The notes under the pieces are model-generated. The model was given only the letters and a program-made list of their open reading frames with translations. It searched no databases and was not told the origin of the DNA. A program made the position numbers and the translations under genes. DNA of 64,000 nucleotides from a virus, in IMG/VR virus record IMGVR_UViG_3300044712_001034, positions 1 to 64,000 of that record, one strand, 5' to 3'. Position 1 is the stretch's first letter. Each line of letters begins with the position of its first letter. Below, piece after piece: positions 1,811 to 59,794 of this stretch.

Positions 1811-1853
1811 AAATAAAAAATCCCCCGATTATTTCGGGGGATTTTTTATTTAA
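1811..1853 (+). promoter_or_regulatory. hairpin + T-run + ATTTAA element, copy 1
   Basis: AAATAAAAAATCCCCCGA-TTATT-TCGGGGGATTTTTTATTTAA. Confidence 0.85.
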
Positions 1854-1880
1854 CACTACAAATTAAAAAGGAGAAAAAAA

Positions 1881-2045
1881 ATGGAATTCGAAAATATTTT
1901 TGAATTTGAAGAGTATTGTGCGTTCTGGGGATGTTTACCAAGACAGAAAACAATAAATAACGGAACAATTTTTTCCCAGAAAAATATGGAAGTTCTAGGA
2001 ACCTGGGAAAAGAAAGGAGATAAATATTATATCTATAGGCTGTAA
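1881..2045 (+). CDS. small hypothetical protein (MEFENIFEFEEY..., not in ORF track)
   Basis: AAGGAG RBS followed by ATG, downstream of hairpin element 1. Confidence 0.7.
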   Translation: MEFENIFEFEEYCAFWGCLPRQKTINNGTIFSQKNMEVLGTWEKKGDKYYIYRL

Positions 2046-2066
2046 TGGGCTAGAATAATTGCCCAA

Positions 2067-2107
2067 AAAAAATCCCAGGATTTATTTTCCTGGGATTTTT
2101 TATTTAA
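2067..2107 (+). promoter_or_regulatory. hairpin + T-run + ATTTAA element, copy 2
   Basis: AAAAAATCCCAGGA-TTTATTT-TCCTGGGATTTTTTATTTAA. Confidence 0.85.
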
Positions 2108-2132
2108 CAACCGATTAGAAAAGGAACATAAA

Positions 2133-2618
2133 ATGCTAAAAACATTTGAAATTGATATTGAAAAGACGGATTTATCCGCTGCAAATTATGCCCGTGAGAA
2201 TTCTTTATCTTTCATTTTTTTTCTAAAAGATGGGAGAAAATTACTGGACACGCATGGTCTGTTAGAATCTGGAATTCTAACAGACCATGAAATTATTATG
2301 CGAGAAAAACCAGATATTATTTGCTGCTGTTATCCAAAAGCTTGTTATCAGCGTTATTTTCAAAATAACGCTGTAGAATCTGTAAATCTTCTGGATGAAG
2401 AGGAAACAAAAGAAAACGATTACAGTCCAGAAATTGTTTTCGCAGATTGTTATAATAATACTGTTTGGGTTTCTATTTGTAGATGGACAAATGAAATTGA
2501 TTTATATGGATGGAAAAATGGTAGACAGTATAAAAGAGCTATTTATGTAGCTTCTTTTACTAAGAAAGAGCAGGATGAATTTTATGGAGAGAAAACTAAA
2601 AAACTCAAAAGAATATAA
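2133..2618 (+). CDS. hypothetical protein with CCCYP motif
   Basis: 161-aa ORF with AAGGA RBS. Confidence 0.75.
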   Translation: MLKTFEIDIEKTDLSAANYARENSLSFIFFLKDGRKLLDTHGLLESGILTDHEIIMREKPDIICCCYPKACYQRYFQNNAVESVNLLDEEETKENDYSPEIVFADCYNNTVWVSICRWTNEIDLYGWKNGRQYKRAIYVASFTKKEQDEFYGEKTKKLKRI

Positions 2619-2625
2619 TCTTACT

Positions 2626-2660
2626 AAAGCCCTAGAATATTCTAGGGCTTTTTTATTTAA
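2626..2660 (+). promoter_or_regulatory. hairpin + T-run + ATTTAA element, copy 3
   Basis: AAAGCCCTAGAATATTCTAGGGCTTTTTTATTTAA. Confidence 0.85.
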
Positions 2661-2710
2661 CTAAACAATTCTGTTTAGTTATATTACAATTTCTCAAAGG
2701 AGAATATATA

Positions 2711-3112
2711 ATGAAATCGGGAACTGTTGCTTTCGTGATTTTTTGCATTATTTTAACGCTAGTAGGAATTCTAGCGTTAGTTAGTAATGCAAAAGCAGAA
2801 GAACCGGATAATTTTGGTTATCAGGTTTATTTACCAGTAATTTCTTTTCAACCAGATAACCCTCCGGTTTATCAAGAAGTTAAATTGGGTTATGATATTT
2901 CTTTTATCGGGTGGTTGGGATTTGGTTCTAGATATGCTTATTTCTTTGAACCAATTTCCCCAGATTTTATGGTTATTTCTGGGGAAAAGTTTCACAAAGT
3001 GGAACTTAAAACTTCCTCAATTGAAGAAGATAGAAAGAAAGGAAATTATAGTTTTCTTCTAGTAACTAAACATGCTACTTGGGATAAATATTTTGTGTAT
3101 GTGAAAGATTAA
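2711..3112 (+). CDS. secreted/membrane protein with signal peptide and VYLPVI motif
   Basis: Hydrophobic N-terminus ending in AKA, then YQVYLPVISF. Confidence 0.75.
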   Translation: MKSGTVAFVIFCIILTLVGILALVSNAKAEEPDNFGYQVYLPVISFQPDNPPVYQEVKLGYDISFIGWLGFGSRYAYFFEPISPDFMVISGEKFHKVELKTSSIEEDRKKGNYSFLLVTKHATWDKYFVYVKD

Positions 3113-3117
3113 TAAAT

Positions 3118-3156
3118 AAACTCCCTAGATTAATTTCTAGGGAGTTTTTTATTTAA
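3118..3156 (+). promoter_or_regulatory. hairpin + T-run + ATTTAA element, copy 4
   Basis: AAACTCCCTAGA-TTAATT-TCTAGGGAGTTTTTTATTTAA. Confidence 0.85.
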
Positions 3157-3182
3157 GGACATAATTCAAAAAGGAGATAGAA

Positions 3183-3347
3183 ATGGAATCTGTATATATT
3201 GAAAAAGAAAATGGTAAGTATGTTGTAAGAGATGATAAAAATAATATCATCTACGTGCAGAATCAATTAACCTTTGAAGAGATTGTAATTAACTTCAAAG
3301 ATCTTAATTTCTTAGTGATTGATGGAAAAACTGGTGAGGTTCTTTAG
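3183..3347 (+). CDS. small hypothetical protein (MESVYIEKENGK..., not in ORF track)
   Basis: AAGGAG RBS; lies between elements 4 and 5. Confidence 0.7.
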   Translation: MESVYIEKENGKYVVRDDKNNIIYVQNQLTFEEIVINFKDLNFLVIDGKTGEVL

Positions 3348-3353
3348 TTTTAT

Positions 3354-3390
3354 AAAATGCCCCGATTAATTTCGGGGCATTTTTATTTAA
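3354..3390 (+). promoter_or_regulatory. hairpin + T-run + ATTTAA element, copy 5
   Basis: AAAATGCCCCGA-TTAATT-TCGGGGCATTTTTATTTAA. Confidence 0.85.
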
Positions 3391-3434
3391 GGAAACAATT
3401 CTGTTTTCTTATAATTCAATAAGGAGAATTTGAA

Positions 3435-3743
3435 ATGGAAAAGAAAATGATGGTTATTCGCAATATGAATGAATTAGCTAGGTTTGTTTCTCAGGGGAAA
3501 ATTTTCCCCGTTATTTCCTCTGTAGATACTGTCGCTATTTATTTTGTAAAACCGGATAATTCGATTAAAGAAGTTAGGACGATTGAGAATAATGATATTC
3601 CAGGAGAATATCTTATTCATCACGCCCATGATAAATCAGAATTATTGGAAAATATTGAAGAATTTAATCGCGGGAAAGAGAAAGCCGCGATTGTAATTGA
3701 AGAAAGTATGAATATTTCTTTACCTCTAAAGATTTGGCTTTAG
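3435..3743 (+). CDS. hypothetical protein
   Basis: 102-aa ORF, TAAGGAG RBS. Confidence 0.75.
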   Translation: MEKKMMVIRNMNELARFVSQGKIFPVISSVDTVAIYFVKPDNSIKEVRTIENNDIPGEYLIHHAHDKSELLENIEEFNRGKEKAAIVIEESMNISLPLKIWL

Positions 3744-3787
3744 AGGCCTTCCTTATTAGAAAAGGAATATAATATGTAAATAAATAT

Positions 3788-3834
3788 AATCCCCGGAAAT
3801 GGTAAAATAAACCTTCCGGGGATTTTTTATTTAA
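3788..3834 (+). promoter_or_regulatory. hairpin + T-run + ATTTAA element, copy 6 (large loop)
   Basis: AATCCCCGGAA...TTCCGGGGATTTTTTATTTAA, overlapping the next RBS (TAAGGAG). Confidence 0.8.
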
Positions 3835-3848
3835 GGAGATAATTCAAA

Positions 3849-4769
3849 ATGGATGAAATAGAGTTATGCAAGTTACCTTGTGAAATTCAAAATAAGATCT
3901 TTGAAAGCGTAAGTTATGAGTTTTGGGATTTGATTTATTACAATCCTGAAACAAAAGAAATCCGCTATTTTGATTATGATAGCGGAGTTAAACTTCCTAA
4001 TCCTTGGCTAAAAGTTATAGAGAAATGAAACCAGGAATAGATAAAGGAGCTTCTAATTGTTTTATAGGAATATTATTTATTATATTCCTAGTATTGTTAA
4101 CAATCACCCTAGTGAAATTCTTTGGAGGAATATGAAATATACCAGGCCGTTAATTTCTTATCGCTTGTATATTCTGTTTTTGTTTCTTTTCACGCTAGTA
4201 TTACTAGCATCTGCATTTGGATTAGGAGATTAAAATGAAATATAATTATATTTCTCTTGTAGAAAAAAGGATTTTTTCCGGGCCAATTGTGGAATTCCCA
4301 CAAAAAGAAATTCCAGCAATTCCTGTAAAACCATTATTTCCGGAAGATTATCCGGAAATAAATACATTTCCTACTACAATGAAAGAGGATGAATATGGCA
4401 GAGTATCTTATTACAACTAAAAATGGAAAACATATTATAGTGGAAGAAGAAAAAAGGATTCAAATTCCACTAGAAACTCAGCGAGAAATCAAATTGAAAA
4501 TTCATCCAGAAGATTATCTTTTGGATAGAATTTTTGATACTATGCAGAGGGTTAATTAAATGGAACCAGGGTATATAGAACCTTCAACCTGGTTTGCAGA
4601 AATTAATTGTTTCAACTATTCTAACTCTAAATTTAGTATAGGAGAAACAGTTATTTATAACGGAAAAACATTTGAGATAACAGGAGTAAATAAAACCTCT
4701 TCTGGATTTATTTATTCTCTCGCTGAAAGTGAAAATACTTTCCGAGAAGAAGAATTATCTCATTTGTAA
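3849..4769 (+). CDS. run of small hypothetical ORFs (3849-4028, 4235-4420, 4560-4769 and shorter ones)
   Basis: Short, tightly coupled ORFs with GGAG/GAGG RBSs. Confidence 0.55.
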
Positions 4770-4778
4770 TGAGCCTAC

Positions 4779-4815
4779 AAAATAACCCAGAAATTTCTGG
4801 GTTATTTTTATTTAA
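4779..4815 (+). promoter_or_regulatory. hairpin + T-run + ATTTAA element, copy 7
   Basis: AAAATAACCCAGAAATTTCTGGGTTATTTTTATTTAA. Confidence 0.85.
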
Positions 4816-4841
4816 CGACAAAATTTAAAATAGGAGGAATT

Positions 4842-5778
4842 ATGAAATTTACCCTAACGTTTAATTATTCCAGGAATGATCCAGAAAAAGTAATAAGAGT
4901 TGAAAAAGCTATTTTGGAAACTCTGCAAAGCGAAAAAGGATTTTATCCTTTTCCAACTTATCATGAAGTAGGATTTACTTATTCTACTATTTTCGAAACC
5001 GAAAAGAATCCTCATTTACTTGTCACAGAAATTTGTGAGAAATTAAAAGAGGAAGCTGATTTATCACAGATTCAATTATTTAGGATTGATAATGCTAGCA
5101 AAAAGGGGTAGAAAAAATATACGTAACGGGGCAAAAAGAAATTCTGTTGCCTTGGTAGAACTAATGTTATTTCTGGAAAGGAATAAAACTTTTCCAGTTT
5201 TAGCGTGCTATCTTCCAAACATGAAACAATCTTTAGGAGTTTATAATAAGGAGAAAAAATACGAAGAAATTCCAATGATTGAATCTTTAGAATTTGAACT
5301 TGGTGGTTTTAGAGGAATTATGGAAAAGATTAAAGAATGGAATCATCCATATTCCGCTATTTCGGAAAAAGTAATTTCACAAGGATTATTTGATTAAGGA
5401 GAATATATGGAAAAAGTTCTAGTTTTTCTTGTTGTTGTTCTTTGGGCGTTATATTTTAATGCCTCAAATCTTAGAACTATGGAAATAAAATACTTTATGA
5501 AGGATATATCCGGGTTTCATTTCTATCTGGATATTTTCTTTACAACTGGTTTTTCTATTTATTTCCTAATCCAAATTTTTGGGTATATATTCTAAAGGAG
5601 AATATTATGATTATAACATGCAATTGCAAACATTCAGCACAAGACGAGTTTCATGGAATTAATAAACGCGTACATAATCCAATAAGCAAAGATAGGAAAA
5701 TTATCGGATATAGGTGCACAGTTTGTGGTAATATTAAATCTGTGAAAGCAGAAGAAATTCAAGAAAAGAAAAAATAAT
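4842..5778 (+). CDS. four small hypothetical ORFs (4842-5111, 5086-5397, 5407-5595 membrane, about 5607-5778 Cys-rich MIITCNC...CTVCG)
   Basis: ORF track plus manual translation; RBSs present. Confidence 0.6.
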
Positions 5779-5782
5779 TAGT

Positions 5783-5819
5783 AAAAGATCCCGATTAATT
5801 TCGGGATCTTTTTATTTAA
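5783..5819 (+). promoter_or_regulatory. hairpin + T-run + ATTTAA element, copy 8
   Basis: AAAAGATCCCGA-TTAATT-TCGGGATCTTTTTATTTAA. Confidence 0.85.
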
Positions 5820-5847
5820 CAACCGAATTAGAAAAAGGAGAAAAGAA

Positions 5848-7361
5848 ATGTATCTAGATGGTCAAATTGTTTTTGATAAAACTAGTAATAGGTTATTGGC
5901 TTATATGGGATTTTATGAAGATAAAGCAAGTAATTTCTTTACTTGCTTTGTTGATAGCAAAGGAAATGTAATTAAAAATTATAATGGTGATATTGTAAAA
6001 GATACTACGCATTTTATTTCTTCTAATCCAGAATTGATTCCTTCTGATATTCAAAAAGAAGTTTACAGAGAAGCAGTAGTAATATCTATGTATCAAATTA
6101 ATACTGATTTAAATAGAGATGAGTTTTTAAAGGAGCTAGAAAAACTTTTTAATAAAGTTAGTGAATTGCTTGAATCTGGGATAATTCAAAAGGGTAAATA
6201 AGAAATGCAACTTACATCTGAAGAAAGATTCAAAATCGCAAAAGATTTTGAAAGGTATAATCTGGATGAAATTCTAGAAAGATCTAATCAAACGATTAGA
6301 TTTACTAGAAATACTTATCAAGAAATTCTCCGTTCTCTTGATTTATGCGGAGTATTTGAATATTCAATAAAACATGATCCTCAAAATAAAGAGGGTTTTG
6401 TTTTATATACTGATCTTTCTTGTTGGGAATTTACTCAACTATATAATATCTATGAAAGAATTATTCTAGAGGAGAATTAAAATGGATGACGAAACAAGAG
6501 GTTGTATTGCAGAAATTGCATGTATTATTCTTTTAAGTACTGTTGTTTTATGTTTTGGATTAGTAATGCTTCTTACTACTAATCCAAATTTATGGTGAAA
6601 AAATGATTCCAAAAAACAGCGAATGGGTTTATACTTTGGTAATTGTATTTCTTGTAATCCTGCTTTTAGTTATTCAAGGAGTTTAAAATGCAAGCCAGTA
6701 TTATTAAAAGCGAAGTGAAAAGAGTTTTAGGATTAATCCTAGAACAGAAAGAAAGTGTAACCAAGAAGGAGGAATTACTTCCTATATTAAAACAATACAT
6801 TCCTCTTATTTTTTCTTCTGAGGATATTGAATCTTCCAGGGGTTTATTAACAATCCTTGGTGGAAATAATAATCTCCCCTTTGATGTAATTCAAGAAGCT
6901 TTGGAACAATTTGAAAAGGAGAATAAACAATGATTGCAGTATTAACATTCCCAGTCAAGATAATTTTGTTTCCTTTTAAATTCCCGAAAGTATTTCTTTT
7001 CCTACTTGCGGTAGGATTAATGCTTTTAATTGGCATTAATATATCACATGGTTTTACAAAACATTGGGATACTTATGACTCTGCTAAAAATTGTTTTAAT
7101 AATAATGGAGCGCAATTAATAATTCGCTCTGAAGAATGGCCTGAAAAGGCCAAACTATATTGTCTAATTCCTGGTGAGGGAATTGCAATTCAAGTAGTAA
7201 AATTAATAAATGGTAAATGGGAAGAAATTACTTCTTATGTTACCAAAATAGAGAACGCCAATGAGATTAATCTCATTGAATTTGTAGAAAGTGATATGGG
7301 GAAATATGGTTATTATAATTATGTTTCTCCTGCTTTGCAAGAATTGATTATTGTTCCATGA
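5848..7361 (+). CDS. hypothetical ORFs 5848-6201, 6205-6480, 6688-6933, 6930-7361 (membrane-anchored) and tiny hydrophobic ORFs
   Basis: ORF track, coupled starts/stops, RBSs. Confidence 0.6.
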
Positions 7362-7376
7362 AGTTATTTGTAACGT

Positions 7377-7413
7377 AAATGCCTAGGATTAATCCTAGGC
7401 ATTTTTTATTTAA
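7377..7413 (+). promoter_or_regulatory. hairpin + T-run + ATTTAA element, copy 9
   Basis: AAATGCCTAGGATTAATCCTAGGCATTTTTTATTTAA. Confidence 0.85.
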
Positions 7414-7448
7414 AGACGTTCATTCTAATACCTAAAGGAAAGGAAAAT

Positions 7449-7817
7449 ATGATTAAGTTATTTGAAACTATTGCTGAAGTAAAGGAACATATCTCTACGA
7501 TGGAAAAAGTAGAAAAAATTGTTGGATATGTTGGAGATACAAGAAAGTATTATGATTTTTCTGGTTTATTTATTCGAGAAGATAATTATTATATTCCGGT
7601 AAGTTATTGTTTTTATGATGATACTGGGGAAGAAATTCCTGGAAGTTATAAAAATAATGCCGTAGCTATTTTTCCTGAAGTATCCTTTAATGAAGAAACA
7701 AACTTTTGGGAAATTAGCTTTGATTCAGCAGATTTTGGTGAATATGATGTATCCAGATTTACTTATTATTTTAAATCTAAAGAAGAATTAATCAAAGCTT
7801 TGGGATTGGAGAATTAA
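7449..7817 (+). CDS. hypothetical protein
   Basis: 122-aa ORF with AAGGA RBS. Confidence 0.7.
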   Translation: MIKLFETIAEVKEHISTMEKVEKIVGYVGDTRKYYDFSGLFIREDNYYIPVSYCFYDDTGEEIPGSYKNNAVAIFPEVSFNEETNFWEISFDSADFGEYDVSRFTYYFKSKEELIKALGLEN

Positions 7818-7918
7818 AATGGAAATATATTATAGAAGAAGGAGGATAAAATGTAACATATTTTACTCAGATTTTTTCATCCAGATTTATTCTAATTCTA
7901 ATTAATAAGGAGACGTAA

Positions 7919-8305
7919 ATGAAAAAGATCTTTTTGATTATGCTTTTGGTAATTGTTTTTCTTTCCGGTTGTTCTGATGCTGATATTGCATCAAAAAATT
8001 TATCTACTGATGCAGATAATTTTAAAATAGATAGGAGGATTGTTTTTTATAATGGTATTACCGGAGATTATATTTTAGTAATTGAAGGTAAATGTTCTTT
8101 GGGAAATAATGATGCTACGGGAGAATTAACTGTAACTTGTAAAACTTCTGATAATACCTATAAAAAACATTTTCTAGGCTTATCAGATAACGTAACTTAT
8201 TTTGCAGAACAAACTGATGGCGTTCCTGTAAACGTTTATAATTATAAAGTTATTTTCAAACCGGAAACAATTCTTCCGGATATTGATTTGAAAATTAGCA
8301 AGTAA
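7919..8305 (+). CDS. phage lipoprotein
   Basis: Lipobox LSG-C after a hydrophobic signal; ADNF..RRIVFYNGITG resembles a common phage lipoprotein family. Confidence 0.8.
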   Translation: MKKIFLIMLLVIVFLSGCSDADIASKNLSTDADNFKIDRRIVFYNGITGDYILVIEGKCSLGNNDATGELTVTCKTSDNTYKKHFLGLSDNVTYFAEQTDGVPVNVYNYKVIFKPETILPDIDLKISK

Positions 8306-8311
8306 TTTACT

Positions 8312-8346
8312 AAAGATCCGGATTTAATCCGGATCTTTTTATTTAA
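8312..8346 (+). promoter_or_regulatory. hairpin + T-run + ATTTAA element, copy 10
   Basis: AAAGATCCGGATTTAATCCGGATCTTTTTATTTAA, directly followed by AGGAG RBS. Confidence 0.85.
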
Positions 8347-12124: not shown

Positions 12125-12901
12125 ATGAATTTTCATGGTCAAATAAGGATTTTCAGCGAGTTGGAGTATTTAATTCCTGCTATGCGGGAAGGACAGAATT
12201 TAAATATTTTAATTCGAGCGCCTAGTGGATATGGAAAAACAAAATTAGCGGTACATATTGCATTATCTGTAGATGAAAATAATTGTGAATTATTTCTAGC
12301 CAATGAAAGATTTGAAGAGTTTTCTTCTGAAAAAAGGATTATTATTATTGATGAAGTTCATTTAATAACTAATCCAGAATTCCTTTATCCGCATATGGAT
12401 AGCGGTAAACATATTTTTATTTTGTGCTCAAATGAATTTGGACAATTAAAAGAACCACTATCTAATCGCTGTATAGATTTAACTTTTGATCTATATTCAG
12501 ATCAGGAAATTGGAGAAATTATATTTGAAGATTTTCAAAGAAATAGCTTTACTCTTTCTGATCCTTTCGTAATTGAAGTAGTTAGAAATAGTAATGGAAT
12601 TCCCAGGACAGCGAGAAATTTAGTAAAAACGCTATCCATGATTTTTAAAATAAAAGGAGTACCAGATTCTATTGAATCTTTACAAGATATTCTAAGAAAT
12701 ACTTTACAATTAGAGGATGGTTTAAATCCTTTACATAGGAGATATTTAGATTATATCCAAAAAGTAGAAAGAGCTTCTTTGGATACTTTAATTTTTGCGA
12801 CTCGATTAGATAAATCTACAATTCTAAGAGAAATCGAGCCGGTATTGATAAATAAAAATCTTATTAGAATTACTTCAAGAGGTCGGGTATGCAACAAATA
12901 A
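12125..12901 (+). CDS. ruvB: RuvB-like AAA+ ATPase (Holliday junction branch-migration motor)
   Basis: Walker A APSGYGKT, Walker B IIDEVH, LSNR Arg finger, GIPRTA sensor II, C-terminal GL...R.YL...EIEP.L....I.IT.RGR winged helix. Confidence 0.8.
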   Translation: MNFHGQIRIFSELEYLIPAMREGQNLNILIRAPSGYGKTKLAVHIALSVDENNCELFLANERFEEFSSEKRIIIIDEVHLITNPEFLYPHMDSGKHIFILCSNEFGQLKEPLSNRCIDLTFDLYSDQEIGEIIFEDFQRNSFTLSDPFVIEVVRNSNGIPRTARNLVKTLSMIFKIKGVPDSIESLQDILRNTLQLEDGLNPLHRRYLDYIQKVERASLDTLIFATRLDKSTILREIEPVLINKNLIRITSRGRVCNK

Positions 12902-21877: not shown

Positions 21878-21896
21878 ATAATATAATTTAAATAAT

Positions 21897-21936
21897 AAAA
21901 GCCCTAGGATTTATTCCTAGGGCTTTTTGCGTTTAA
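21897..21936. terminator. bidirectional intrinsic terminator at the convergent junction; same hairpin family as elements 1-10
   Basis: AAAAGCCCTAGGA-TTTAT-TCCTAGGGCTTTTT then GCGTTTAA rather than ATTTAA. Confidence 0.85.
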
Positions 21937-22009
21937 TTTTTTCTTGGCTTTGGGCCAAAAAATTTTAATTTTTTTCAGTTTTGCCAAAAAAGAATTCTCC
22001 AAAAGAATT

Positions 22010-22456
22010 TTATTTTTCTACAAAAACAATTTCTAATCTATCATACAAGAATTTCATCTTACTAACTTCAAGTCCAACAGGAGAATAATCACTTTCAAAA
22101 ATAGAATAATGATACGGAGTCGGATCATATTCTTTATGGTTTTTAGATAAATAATTTTCATCTGTAGATTCCAATAAAGCAAAGAATTGTACAAACCAGG
22201 CCACAAATTCTACCTGTTCTTGTGGACAATTTACTATAGTAATTTTATTATTTAAGAAATGAAATCTTAGATCTAAAGAAACTAATTTTCTTACTAGGTA
22301 TTCAAGTAGCTCTATCTGGTCTGTATAAATTATTTCTAGTTCATCCGTTATGTAATCCCGGATTTGATACAATTCAGCTAGGATACTTGTAGTGGAGTTA
22401 GTGTAATTGGCCTCTTCAATTAACCGGAAAAATTGGGAATTATTCATAATGCACAA
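22010..22456 (-). CDS. hypothetical protein
   Basis: 148-aa ORF overlapping the RNR stop. Confidence 0.7.
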   Translation of the reverse strand: MCIMNNSQFFRLIEEANYTNSTTSILAELYQIRDYITDELEIIYTDQIELLEYLVRKLVSLDLRFHFLNNKITIVNCPQEQVEFVAWFVQFFALLESTDENYLSKNHKEYDPTPYHYSIFESDYSPVGLEVSKMKFLYDRLEIVFVEK

Positions 22457-25098
22457 GTCTCGTTATTACAATATTTATCTCCTACTGATTCTACATCAAA
22501 CATATTTGAGAAATCTAATTGAGATAATTTACTAGATAACTCTTCATACTTTTCTTTAGTTATTTCTTCGTAGGGCATTTGTGGATAAGCACCATAAGAA
22601 ATTTTTGGTAGGAATGAAACAGCTTTTAGTTTGAATTGGAAATAATTCAACGCGTTCTCTACATCTTTTCCCTCTTTCTCTGGATCAAAGGTAACAGTTA
22701 CACTAACAGAATTATCTGCCCAATGTTCTTGTGCAAAACTGGCTAAATTTAACTGTTCCCACATAGAAACATCTTTTAGAGTTCTCATCTTTTCCCCAAG
22801 AGATACAGGGAATTCTACAACTACTGTAGAACTTTCTTGTCCTACCGCAGGTTCTACATTATATCCCGCATCAATTAAAGGTTTTATTAATGGGGAATTA
22901 TAACCTAGCCTTACTCTGCGAATGTAATAATTAGATTCTGGATAATGAACTCCTGGGGTTACTCCAGCTAGTAAAGAAACTGTTCCGGAGGGTTTTGTTG
23001 TAGTTAGTTTTATTGATAAAGGAATTGCAAACCAATCAGAGTACACTTTATCATAATATTTTGCAGTTTTATATCCCTCTTCCATCCAGGTTTCTAATTC
23101 TTTTACTCCTCTATTAGTAACAAATTGCGCTAATCCTGTCATAGATAGCCCAATTCTTCTATTACGTAGCATAATTCTGTTGGATTCCGGCCACTGAGTT
23201 CCTAATAAAGTAACTGTCTTTGCGTAAAGATAAGCATATTTTATTGTAGTTTTAAAATCTTCCAACGTTTCGTGATTAGTTGGGAAGGACTCAACTAGAT
23301 TGCAATTTTCATAAGATTCTAAGGTAATCTCTCCACAATTAGCAGACACAATTCCAGAGCAAAAACCGCTAATAGGAGTAGGATCAGCAATAATATAAGT
23401 GTGTGTATTATCTACAGTACCATTATAAACATCTTCTCTTTCTTCTAGCAGTTTAACAGAAACTACCTTATGATTCTTTCTATAAAATCCACCATCTCTT
23501 CGGAATGGGTAATGAACTCTATTATGTTCTGAATTAGTTAGTAACTCTAGATTAGAAATATCATTATTTAGTTTTGTGAAATCTTTATGATGCAAGATTA
23601 GTTTATCTTTTATCTTTCCGTTATAATATTCCCAAATCATTCTTGCAGCATATTGGTGTTTTGCTTTTCCATCTACCCAACCATGAACACGTATGTGACC
23701 ATCTTTAGGAATAGACATTGAAAAAGCTCTTACAGATTGACCTATTGTTAGATCTTTAGCCATAATTTTATTACCCCGAAAAGTATAGAAATTATGATCT
23801 AAAGTACATTTAACTTTTAGTCCAGAATCGAAAGTAACTTCTACTAATTCTTGATCTTTCCTAGTTAGTCTAGGGCTTCTCATCATACTAATTTCTGGTA
23901 ATTTTGTATCGGGATTCCAAGTGTATACTAAAATATCCTTACCACTTTCTGCTAATTCTTTGAAAGTTTTATCACCCTCATACACAGTAACAATCTTAGT
24001 ATCCCCGGTTACGCAAGGATTGAGTCCTGAAACCCTGAAATCTTTATTATCCTTTTCAGTTTCTTTCATCCTACTATAAAGGCGAGAATTGTTTACCCAA
24101 AAAATTCCGGGTTCTCCATTAATCCTAATACGCCTAGCTATATCTTTATAATCAATACCTGTTTCAGCATAGATAGAGTTATTACTTGCCCAACCGTAAT
24201 CCATTCGATCAGGATTCTTAGTATAATCTTTTAGATCTAGAAAGTCTTCTGTTGGATTTCCTAATGCTAGCTCTGCGGATCTACGAACATTTCCAGCAAT
24301 AACCGCTTTACCAATTAGATTGAACACATCTGTAATAAGTCTAGCAGAAAGAAACTCTCCATTCTTGTTTCCAAGTAATTCTCTAATCTTATCGTGAAGT
24401 TCTTTTAGGGGTTTATAACCAGAAGAAACACCACCAAAAGTTTTGATTGGCGCACCCTCTGGTCTAATTAAAGAATAGTCAAATTCTATTTCATAATTAG
24501 AAGTAAAGTAAGAATCAAGTAAAGCACCAAGAGAAGCTACCCACCCCTCCCTATCATCAGAAATTACTACAGTTAGTTTTCTTTTTCCTGGCTCTTTGAT
24601 TTTTACTTTATTTGCTCCAAGAGTATCAAACCCTACTCCAACACCCAACATTAAAGAATCCATAGCATACATAAAAGGTTTTGAAATATTTTCAGTAATA
24701 CTTATGGTGGAAACGAACGTACAATTATACAGGCTACCTGTTAGTCCTTTCTCCATAATTAAAGGAGTTCCCATAGCCCACAAACTTCTACCTCCCGGAA
24801 GAAATTTAAAATTGAACATTCTATCATACATTTCTTGGGCAGACTTTTGAGCTTTTCCTTGTGACCACTCTAATTCAGAATCTTCTATATATTGTTTCTG
24901 AATAGAATATATGCCTTCTACAACTCTTTTAATTGTTTCCCACCACTGTTCATTTTCCCCGGATTCCTTAATTCTGCTATAAGTCCTTAGAAAAATAAAC
25001 TCTCCCAAACCATTAAATCCAAATGGAGGAACTTTAGTCTTATATTGGGAAAGGAAAGAATCTGTTAGCTTAAACGTACTAGTAATTGGAAATTTCAT
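22444..25098 (-). CDS. nrdJ: class II (B12-dependent) ribonucleotide reductase, monomeric RTPR-type, with intein
   Basis: RTYSR, PGGRSLW, LYNC, GNVRRSA, NPC|GEI, KPSGTVS, DNSVS, C-terminal YCNNETC. Confidence 0.93.
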   Translation of the reverse strand: MKFPITSTFKLTDSFLSQYKTKVPPFGFNGLGEFIFLRTYSRIKESGENEQWWETIKRVVEGIYSIQKQYIEDSELEWSQGKAQKSAQEMYDRMFNFKFLPGGRSLWAMGTPLIMEKGLTGSLYNCTFVSTISITENISKPFMYAMDSLMLGVGVGFDTLGANKVKIKEPGKRKLTVVISDDREGWVASLGALLDSYFTSNYEIEFDYSLIRPEGAPIKTFGGVSSGYKPLKELHDKIRELLGNKNGEFLSARLITDVFNLIGKAVIAGNVRRSAELALGNPTEDFLDLKDYTKNPDRMDYGWASNNSIYAETGIDYKDIARRIRINGEPGIFWVNNSRLYSRMKETEKDNKDFRVSGLNPCVTGDTKIVTVYEGDKTFKELAESGKDILVYTWNPDTKLPEISMMRSPRLTRKDQELVEVTFDSGLKVKCTLDHNFYTFRGNKIMAKDLTIGQSVRAFSMSIPKDGHIRVHGWVDGKAKHQYAARMIWEYYNGKIKDKLILHHKDFTKLNNDISNLELLTNSEHNRVHYPFRRDGGFYRKNHKVVSVKLLEEREDVYNGTVDNTHTYIIADPTPISGFCSGIVSANCGEITLESYENCNLVESFPTNHETLEDFKTTIKYAYLYAKTVTLLGTQWPESNRIMLRNRRIGLSMTGLAQFVTNRGVKELETWMEEGYKTAKYYDKVYSDWFAIPLSIKLTTTKPSGTVSLLAGVTPGVHYPESNYYIRRVRLGYNSPLIKPLIDAGYNVEPAVGQESSTVVVEFPVSLGEKMRTLKDVSMWEQLNLASFAQEHWADNSVSVTVTFDPEKEGKDVENALNYFQFKLKAVSFLPKISYGAYPQMPYEEITKEKYEELSSKLSQLDFSNMFDVESVGDKYCNNETCAL
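23338..24015 (-). mobile_element. intein (226 aa) with HNH endonuclease in the nrdJ active-site motif
   Basis: GLNP|CVTGDT...CTLDH...HHKDFTKLNNDISNLELL..SEH...VYNGTVDNTHTY...IVSAN|CGEITL. Confidence 0.9.
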
Positions 25099-47063: not shown

Positions 47064-47094
47064 TTTGTTACTCCTGTTTGGTTTGTTAGACATT

Positions 47095-47323
47095 ATTATA
47101 CTCACTTAGTTACGATTGTCAAGTACCAATTTTTATGAGTTTTGCTCTTCTTCAAAGATCTTTACATGTTTATTTATCAACAACCTTTTACTGATTATTT
47201 TTTATATGTTCCTCATCAAGACCAATTATCCTAATATTATACACGCTTTTTTAAATTTGTCAAGGGGTATGTTCGTGTACGTATTCATAAACAACATTAT
47301 ATACAAAACTTTTAAAAAGTCAA
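47095..47323 (-). promoter_or_regulatory. three tandem leftward sigma70-type promoters
   Basis: TTGACA/TTGACT-16 bp-TATAAT at 47095-47122, 47236-47263 and 47296-47323. Confidence 0.85.
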
Positions 47324-47382
47324 GTAGCACTCTAGTACACAACAGCAGACCCTACACAGGTCAAAGACCTACATATAGGTAC

Positions 47383-47410
47383 TTGACAAATGTGAAATAT
47401 GGTGTATAAT
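47383..47410 (+). promoter_or_regulatory. rightward sigma70-type promoter
   Basis: GGTAC-TTGACA-16 bp-TATAAT. Confidence 0.85.
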
Positions 47411-47437
47411 GTATACATAACACTAAAGGAGATTGAA

Positions 47438-47701
47438 ATGAGGAGTAGAAAAGTTATAGACGAGGATTTTGAACAGATGTGTGATTGCTTTGAATCTTTA
47501 ACTAAAACACCAAGAAAAGATAAAATAATGCGTAATATGGTAGACTACTTTGGGTATGATAGAGTAAGAGCAGTTATAGTGCACTTCATTGAAAATGATT
47601 TCTTTTCAGAGGAAAATACACGCAGAGCAAAAATTCTAGAAAGCTACAAACCTTATAACTTATTGTATTGGTGGTGTAAAAACTACAAGGAGGATAAATG
47701 A
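47438..47701 (+). CDS. hypothetical protein, similar pattern to 40399-40764
   Basis: FGY.RV.AVI...PYNLL...CK; AAGGAG RBS. Confidence 0.65.
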   Translation: MRSRKVIDEDFEQMCDCFESLTKTPRKDKIMRNMVDYFGYDRVRAVIVHFIENDFFSEENTRRAKILESYKPYNLLYWWCKNYKEDK

Positions 47702-59760: not shown

Positions 59761-59784
59761 TGGGAGGGATTAAAATCCCTCCCA
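59761..59784 (+). other. GC-rich hairpin between lysin and terL (no U tract)
   Basis: TGGGAGGGAT-TAAA-ATCCCTCCCA. Confidence 0.6.
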
Positions 59785-59794
59785 AAGGATACTC

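Follow-up and report, generated by a model that had tools for sequence, protein, structure and literature searches.

Ten short intergenic elements near the left end of an IMG/VR phage genome are probably Rho-independent terminators acting on the host RNA polymerase; judging from sequence, their type appears particular to this phage lineage. They belong to record IMGVR_UViG_3300044712_001034, a sequence of 94,079 bp whose first 64 kb constitute the window analysed here. All ten fall within 6.5 kb (positions 1811 to 8346) on the plus strand, which is also the strand of the neighbouring genes, and all are built of an A-tract, a perfect hairpin and then exactly TTTTTATTTAA. They display the sequence criteria of intrinsic terminators: a stable GC hairpin, an adjoining U-rich tract and co-oriented placement after genes. 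A preliminary description of the region had offered two readings, structure-dependent promoters for a phage RNA polymerase (RNAP) or terminator units that make each gene group an exchangeable cassette. By every one of these sequence criteria the units are terminators; their exchange as cassettes is plausible.

The genome is organised in three blocks. A rightward block (1291-21877) contains small ORFans up to 8.5 kb, followed by an amidoligase/ATP-grasp/amidotransferase operon; a leftward block (22010-47063) carries the replication genes; and a rightward late block starts at 47206. The 13-kb enzyme operon thus lies downstream of all ten elements. Every inverted repeat described previously was recovered at the same place. 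Element 1 (1811..1853) consists of a 13-bp hairpin with the loop ttatt and follows open reading frame (ORF) 1291-1803; its folding energy is -21.7 kcal/mol and it scores 54.1 bits with a covariance model built from the ten copies. Element 2 (2067..2107; loop tttattt; -19.9 kcal/mol) follows ORF 1881-2045 and element 3 (2626..2660; loop atat; -16.7 kcal/mol) follows ORF 2133-2618. The apex GATTAATTTC is found in element 4 (3118..3156; after ORF 2711-3112; -18.8 kcal/mol), element 5 (3354..3390; after ORF 3183-3347; -19.8 kcal/mol) and element 8 (5783..5819; after the zinc-ribbon ORF 5607-5777; -17.9 kcal/mol). Element 6 (3788..3834; -20.0 kcal/mol) has a 15-nt loop. Element 7 (4779..4815; loop aatt; -16.4 kcal/mol) lies behind the gene group 3849-4769, element 9 (7377..7413; loop ttaa; -17.4 kcal/mol) behind ORF 6930-7361, and element 10 (8312..8346; loop tta; -16.4 kcal/mol) behind the lipoprotein gene 7919-8305.

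The recurrence of the tail is far above chance. Exact TTTTTATTTAA occurs eleven times on the plus strand of the 94,079-bp genome and never on the minus strand, and the reversed pattern, used as a control, is absent. A third-order Markov model predicts 0.66 copies per genome, with no run out of 200 exceeding 3, and 0.14 copies for the block. Ten copies, starting at 1843, 2097, 2650, 3146, 3380, 3824, 4805, 5809, 7403 and 8336, are those of the elements; the eleventh (39030) is intragenic and lacks a hairpin. Terminator-like sites in general are also enriched in this part of the genome, with 27 found between 1 and 10 kb against 4.0 expected.

The stems, all perfect, measure 11-13 bp, of which the basal three to five pairs are A-U, and the loops span 3-15 nt. 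Counting from the outside, the first two pairs are A-U in 10/10 copies and the third in 9/10 (it is U-A in element 6); in several copies the basal A-U pairs number four or five. Folding energies range from -16.4 to -21.7 kcal/mol (z -2.9 to -6.3), and no more than 2 of 200 shuffled sequences fold as well in any case. T5-6 A TTT stands directly 3' of every stem, and this AU-rich tail is always unpaired. The stems had been said to differ in sequence while staying paired, and this is borne out: 9 of 11 pairs vary on both sides, and 93% of the alignment cells are paired. The covariation score was 0.63; shuffles gave 0.16, and sliding the pairing partner gave no more than 0.18. The alignment was fitted to a hand-set structure and made of 28 covariance-model matches that include relatives and reverse-strand matches.

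The placement of the elements is equally regular. The hairpin begins 5-44 nt after the upstream stop codon, and the element, which closes with exactly T5-6ATTTAA in all ten copies as originally reported, ends 14-50 nt before the next ATG. Between 1.8 and 8.6 kb there are 12 intergenic gaps of more than 50 nt; 10 of them contain an element, and the ORFan genes in between are grouped into units of one to five genes. The ribosome-binding site of the next gene abuts the motif in copy 6 (AAGGAG) and copy 10 (AGGAG), again in agreement with the earlier account. A start-stop mini-ORF, ATGTAA (3775-3780), sits 8 nt upstream of element 6. Comparable mini-ORFs, with a strong Shine-Dalgarno sequence, an ATG, no more than two codons and a stop (ATGTAA, ATGAAATAA, ATGAAGTAA), were seen in ORFan-block spacers of three related phages: at 3762-3780 and 7839-7856 in the window, at 799-820 and 2652-2670 in locus L011, and at 1117-1136, 1890-1910 and 1937-1958 in contig L016. 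Several stand immediately before or after a terminator element, and they may be start-stop regulatory sites.

The tail is not confined to the ten elements. A T-rich stretch ending in TTTAA is also found at 21923(+), 21901(-), 66359(+), 72503(+) and 93874(-). The first two of these positions flank a bidirectional terminator of the same family (21885..21940) at the convergent junction of the rightward and replication blocks, where no co-oriented gene lies beyond either side. Its plus-strand tail is TTTTTGCGTTTAA and its minus-strand tail TTTTATTATTTAA (-21.5 and -21.1 kcal/mol). The hairpin at this junction had been described as carrying GCGTTTAA in place of ATTTAA; this holds for the plus side, but the minus side, TTTTATTATTTAA, does contain TATTTAA. 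The terminators after late genes at 66.36 and 72.50 kb, outside the window, have the tails TTTTATTTTTAA and TATTTAATTTAA, and that at 93.87 kb on the minus strand has ATTTTCTTTTTAA. The hairpin in front of the leftward gene 17-574, in contrast to what had been suggested, is not of the same kind, since it is followed by AAAATTC and TTTTATCTAA comes 14 nt beyond. Since the tail is present where no co-oriented gene lies behind, and its distance to the next ATG is variable (14-50 nt), it belongs to the terminator and not to the next gene.

These findings bear directly on the proposal that a phage-encoded or virion RNA polymerase reads the elements as hairpin promoters, as in phage N4. Both systems place a hairpin and a few T residues upstream of early genes, and the block has no host-type promoters; the resemblance is a formal one. 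N4 hairpin promoters have 5-7-bp stems and 3-nt loops. The present stems, of 11-13 bp with loops of up to 15 nt, are far longer, and the elements occur after genes and at convergent junctions, where there is no gene to express. The search for an RNA polymerase called for by the preliminary description was run in six frames and found none. The same six-frame domain searches gave no match to sigma region 2 or 4, Rpb1 or Rpb2, with positive controls matched; the T7-type RNAP model PF00940 gave no match either, but its positive control was also silent. Unassigned proteins of medium size, scanned with Pfam and PHROG, yielded no transcription protein. Three ORFs exceed 1000 aa, and their products are assigned: the 1774-aa tape measure, a 1190-aa tail protein and a 1260-aa fibre. 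No ORF of unknown function has the size of an N4-type virion enzyme, and no virion polymerase gene is present. With no polymerase or sigma genes detected by these searches and with the tail at gene-less junctions, N4-type promoters are most improbable.

The same junctions weigh against a role in RNA processing, in which a host endonuclease of RNase E/Y type, or a phage one, would cut read-through transcripts within the single-stranded, AU-rich UUUAUUUAA, so that upstream messages keep a protective 3' hairpin and each cassette acquires its own stability. A stable hairpin followed by an always-unpaired AU-rich tail would suit such a function, the fixed sequence could serve as a cleavage site, and T7 early RNA is indeed processed at intercistronic hairpins. 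The motif is also found, however, at sites with no message downstream of it, the block has no linked nuclease gene, and ten terminators would still need passing. We regard processing as very unlikely to be what the elements are for.

Conservation of the tail was assessed in relatives. An alignment of amidoligase homologues led to G001, a 70-kb IMG/VR contig (loci L011, L015 and L061-64) with 45% identity to the present genome (G000) in the amidoligase beside the array. G001 shares the three-block plan and carries six elements of the same build upstream of its syntenic amidoligase. Their stems and loops are unrelated to those of the window. Four of the six end in exact TTTTTATTTAA, and the other two in the near variants TTTTAATTTAA and TTTATTTATTTAA; the terminator at the convergent junction of G001 (17.97 kb) has TTTTTTATTTAA on the minus and TTTTTTTGTTTAA on the plus strand. 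The loop is less constant. The apex had been called conserved as GA...TC; GATTAATTTC is indeed found in copies 4, 5 and 8, and GA...TC closes 9 of the 10 loops. It appears to be a local feature, since G001 keeps it in only 3/6.

A hairpin, a T-rich stretch and (A)TTTAA recur in the more distant amidoligase contigs L016, L019, L026, L027 and L031 (29-37% identity, GC no higher than 41%). The ten-copy covariance model, built and scanned over the genome and its relatives as had been advised, gave lineage-limited matches: among 394 kb of phage DNA it hit G000, G001, L016 and L027 and nothing else. Across the family, TTTAA stands at a fixed offset in 34 of 75 sites with a hairpin and a T-rich stretch (both strands counted), against 4.4% of T-rich sites that have no hairpin and 0/8 hairpin sites in other amidoligase-bearing contigs. 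Two orthologous positions are informative. Downstream of ORF 6930-7361 (element 9) and its L011 homologue the tail is kept and the stem wholly replaced; the zinc-ribbon ORF 5607-5777 (element 8) and its L027 homologue are both followed directly 3' by an element, again with the stem replaced. Since neutral DNA would be randomised at 30-50% protein identity, the invariant tail is, on this comparison of sequences, under selection across the lineage.

Other searches for relatives were less productive, and close ones are rare. Megablast of 1-12 kb against cultured phages found no close relatives, and blastn of one element against the same set gave chance-level matches only. Single-protein IMG/VR scans with the amidoligase, DNA polymerase and terminase returned no relatives, an alignment scan with the early gene 6930-7361 recovered G001 alone, and a literature search for TATTTAA returned only herpesvirus late promoters.

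Among the closest known counterparts of the elements are terminators of Bacillus subtilis that require NusG. According to Mandell et al. 2021 (PMC8060035), these have consecutive A-U pairs at the stem base with an upstream A-tract, a T run that acts as the NusG pause motif, an interrupted distal U-tract, and an RNA end at least 10 nt past the GC hairpin. The pause motif, TTNTTT, is placed at -11 to -6 from the RNA end, with the hairpin 11-13 nt upstream (PMC9963633). The phage elements share with NusG-assisted (and NusA-assisted) terminators the A-tract, the basal A-U pairs, a T run that would give TTNTTT in the non-template strand, and an interrupted distal U-tract. The likeness is one of sequence. 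The two differ in that B. subtilis tails are degenerate and the phage keeps an exact 11-mer ending in AA across relatives.

We propose that the T run would supply the TTNTTT pause motif and that the A-tract and the terminal A-U pairs would extend the GC-core hairpin. The predicted RNA end falls near the TTT|AA step, 10-12 nt beyond the GC core and 7-9 nt past the extended stem. If the end is at the first A of AA, the T run would fill positions -11/-10 to -6 and ATTTA positions -5 to -1; TTNTTT at -11 to -6 is allowed by the sequence under this predicted end. Such a geometry would explain the T5-6 and the TTT, and not fully the invariant A residues.

The promoters of the genome set the rightward block apart. 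Sites matching the sigma70 consensus at 12/12 positions (cTTGACAaa-16/17-TATAAT) were found at 47383(+), 47263(-), 47122(-), 42022(-) and 33352(-), and 11/12 matches at 47323(-) and 36444(-). A cluster at 47064-47440 fires divergently into the replication and late blocks; G001 has the same arrangement at 42.2-42.6 kb. The near-perfect promoters have the sequence context g-tac-TTGACA-aa, 16-17 nt, g-TATAAT. No sigma70-type promoter (11-12/12) is present in the 22-kb rightward block of either G000 or G001. The absence of a strong TTGACA/TATAAT pair from the element block, reported earlier, was confirmed: promoter-like matches number 43 against 50.9 expected, and none of the ten element spacers has a match of 10/12 or better. 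The region upstream of the first gene (575-1290) has a best match of 9/12. Behind the elements, 9/12 matches with a usable start occur only at element 3 (TTAACT-17-TATATT, 2657..2685, plus strand, its -35 overlapping the ATTTAA of the element) and element 5 (TTAAGG-17-TATAAT, 3387..3415, plus strand). Both are weak candidates, identified by consensus match only. A candidate behind element 2 has a 19-nt spacer, and its start would fall beyond the ATG.

Ten strong terminators in series would let almost no transcription reach the 13-kb enzyme operon. Since the block has no sigma70-type promoters, either antitermination or an unrecognised promoter class must exist. On the terminator reading, with eight of the ten units lacking a usable promoter and the 13-kb operon behind all ten, polymerase must become terminator-resistant. 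Some protein or leader RNA would confer this resistance during infection, giving a timed read-through cascade of the lambda N/Q type to which elements 3 and 5 may contribute weak promoters. Lambda-type systems (N/nut, Q/qut, HK022 put RNA) likewise have serial terminators in one unit devoid of internal promoters, with long operons behind. They differ from the present case, where no N, Q, NusG-like or put-like component was found and where ten intrinsic terminators in 6.5 kb are more densely set than in lambda. The gene 1291-1803 and the leader 905-1200, which is moderately structured (z = -2.8), are antitermination candidates only by position. For neither gene 1291-1803 nor the divergent gene 17-574 did 5.8 billion clusters yield a homologue; both are ORFans, and their AlphaFold models were unusable (pLDDT 38 and 34).

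Several points weigh against terminators subject to read-through. A U-tract does not require identity over 11 bases in 10/10 copies, and no role is established for the final AA; part of the uniformity of the tail within the genome may stem from gene conversion between copies. Read-through is itself deduced from the absence of promoters, and a promoter class that is not recognisable would make antitermination unnecessary. Searches of the phage for NusG, Q or other antiterminator domains (PF02357, PF06530, PF03589) gave no match. No put-like RNA was found, and no Rfam family passed threshold between 1 and 24 kb; the sub-threshold matches on the elements (His, Phe and rimP leaders) reflect terminator shape only. 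A further idea, which we hold to be possible though doubtful, is that the TATTTAA tail is a site for a dedicated phage factor or leader RNA-polymerase complex that, during infection, switches this terminator class off, or into starts, and so gates the promoter-less 22-kb block; the hairpin with its tail would then be a regulatory device common to the lineage.

Alternatively, the elements might be composites of terminator and promoter, with TATTTAA as the core of a non-sigma70 promoter read by host polymerase modified by a phage factor, in the style of T4 late transcription. Transcription of the 13-kb operon and of every cassette would then start separately. The lack of sigma70 promoters from a 22-kb plus-strand block in a genome with perfect ones elsewhere would find an explanation, in both genomes the long enzyme operon comes directly after the last element, so exact an 11-mer hints at a sequence-specific reader, and a hairpin with TATTTAA opens the 200-340-nt block leader of L019, L026 and L027. 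Yet the tail flanks convergent-junction terminators on both sides, and promoters there would drive antisense transcription. In elements 6 and 10 and in elements b, c and f of G001 the Shine-Dalgarno sequence abuts TATTTAA, so that a -10-type element there would start RNA beyond the ribosome-binding site. Nor is there an intergenic TATTTAA devoid of a hairpin, save a weak case at 1015, or any sigma-like or polymerase gene that was found. On balance composite promoters seem unlikely. Other candidate roles for the motif were considered and set aside. As a backward-pointing minus-strand promoter, TTAAAT lacks both a -35 and the A at position 2; no TAnnnT recurs at the fixed spacing of a MotA-box-like middle promoter; an archaeal TATA box does not suit a phage with perfect bacterial promoters; and there is no target-site duplication of the kind that a TTAA-targeting mobile element would leave. 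Pairing of the motif to the 16S rRNA tail was likewise dropped.

Terminators of this kind could have a second function. Because the same module of about 40 nt recurs between unrelated genes, it may double as a homology patch for gene exchange. The element-bounded ORFs show no relationship to each other; early ORFs are without family or paralogue, except for the VG64-type lipoprotein (gene 7919-8305). The intergenic modules, in turn, share mosaic stretches of 16-32 nt beyond the 11-mer: 26/27 between elements 2 and 8, whose downstream leaders are nearly the same, 29/32 between 3 and 5, 25/26 between 4 and 6, and 27/30 between 5 and 8. G000 and G001 have five collinear anchor genes (5086, 6205, 6688, 6930 and 8544 in G000) with different genes between them. 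In this one relative, some of the boundaries carry elements and others have none on one side. Cassette exchange between phages is plausible on a sequence comparison that involves a single distant relative, G001.

The obvious precedent is the PeSL (promoter-early stem-loop) of the T4-type phages RB49 and phi1, in which a strong sigma70-like promoter, made of a -35, a -10 and an AT-rich upstream region, is joined to a stem-loop (Arbiol et al. 2010; PMC2839356). As with PeSLs, terminator stem-loops are repeated between unrelated small genes of an ORFan-rich variable region, the unit ends at the Shine-Dalgarno sequence of the next gene, and conservation is sufficient for homology patches. The difference is that 8 of the 10 present copies have no such promoter, the other two reaching no more than 9/12 matches, and that the conserved part is the terminator tail. 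Lambdoid morons are a further parallel, being small accessory genes each insulated by a terminator; the units described here differ in having no promoters of their own and one flanking module in common.

Taken to its extreme, the PeSL parallel would make the elements recombination linkers, which persist because they let ORFans swap, with termination secondary. Recombination of PeSLs has been demonstrated (PMC2839356), the early ORFs are not paralogous, yet their intergenic modules share mosaic identities, and G001 carries different genes between collinear anchors. The shared stretches are nevertheless short (11-32 nt), stem differences between copies lower the homology, several of the breakpoints in G000-G001 gene content lack an element on one side, and the same tail is carried by isolated terminators in conserved regions. 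Linkage as the prime function is quite unlikely.

The region ahead of the first gene contains a number of repeats. All three genomic copies of TTAGAACGT are located there (1029, 1051 and 1205), as are two copies of TTTGTTACTA (822 and 846) and the motif ATACCAG/ATACCGA (941 and 983), of which L027 has three copies at the corresponding place. An AT-rich hairpin of 16 bp spans 1224-1261, and GC-richer hairpins lie between 1100 and 1185. The repeats and structures of 800-1290 may be operators, an origin or a structured leader. L019 (880-1217) and L026 (2412-2615) have a common non-coding leader after a TATTTAA-tailed terminator; it holds ACCGATA-type iterons, GGGTATACTC(C/G)GG and AAGCTT...AAGCTTAAAAAT, as well as the extended -10 promoters TGCTATAAT and TGGTAGAAT.

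The final 189 nt of the record repeat the first 189 nt (1-189 versus 93891-94079; 188/189 identical), which implies a genome of about 93,890 bp that is either a closed circle or bounded by a short direct terminal repeat; the source lists the record as linear despite these overlapping ends. Gene content is siphovirus-like, with the 1774-aa tape measure, a collagen-like fibre, terminase, portal and 14 tRNAs. Also encoded are a family-A DNA polymerase, a DnaB helicase, a UvsX-like recombinase, ribonucleotide reductase and two DNA methyltransferases. The ribonucleotide reductase ORF 22444-25098 (-) has an HNH endonuclease segment at about residues 460-545, between the two halves of the reductase, that resembles an insertion in frame, perhaps of an intein or homing endonuclease. 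PHROGs label 12125-12901 a clamp loader, and in Pfam it matches an AAA domain and the C-terminal winged helix of RuvB; the predicted product is more likely a RuvB-like ATPase than a clamp loader. Between the lysin and terminase genes (59762-59785) lies a 9-bp GC-rich hairpin, GGGAGGGAT-taaa-ATCCCTCCC, with no U-tract on the gene strand. The build of the terminators, the strong AGGAG ribosome sites, the TTGACA/TATAAT promoters and the GH25 lysin suggest a host of Gram-positive type. A protein atlas search with the lysin gave no host hint, and a contig scan with the amidoligase alignment gave no hint of a prophage or host.

Should the elements be strong terminators of Gram-positive type and nothing else, the finding would be an ordinary one, yet still a hint about the host. 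Should they be factor-assisted terminators that are read through on command, a 22-kb block holding host-takeover-type ORFans and a peptide-ligation enzyme operon, and lacking any recognisable promoter, would be run in this phage group purely by termination and antitermination. The array indicates that a PeSL-like cassette architecture can exist without its promoter half, and the fixed tail provides a cheap marker for the variable ORFan block in related uncultured phages.

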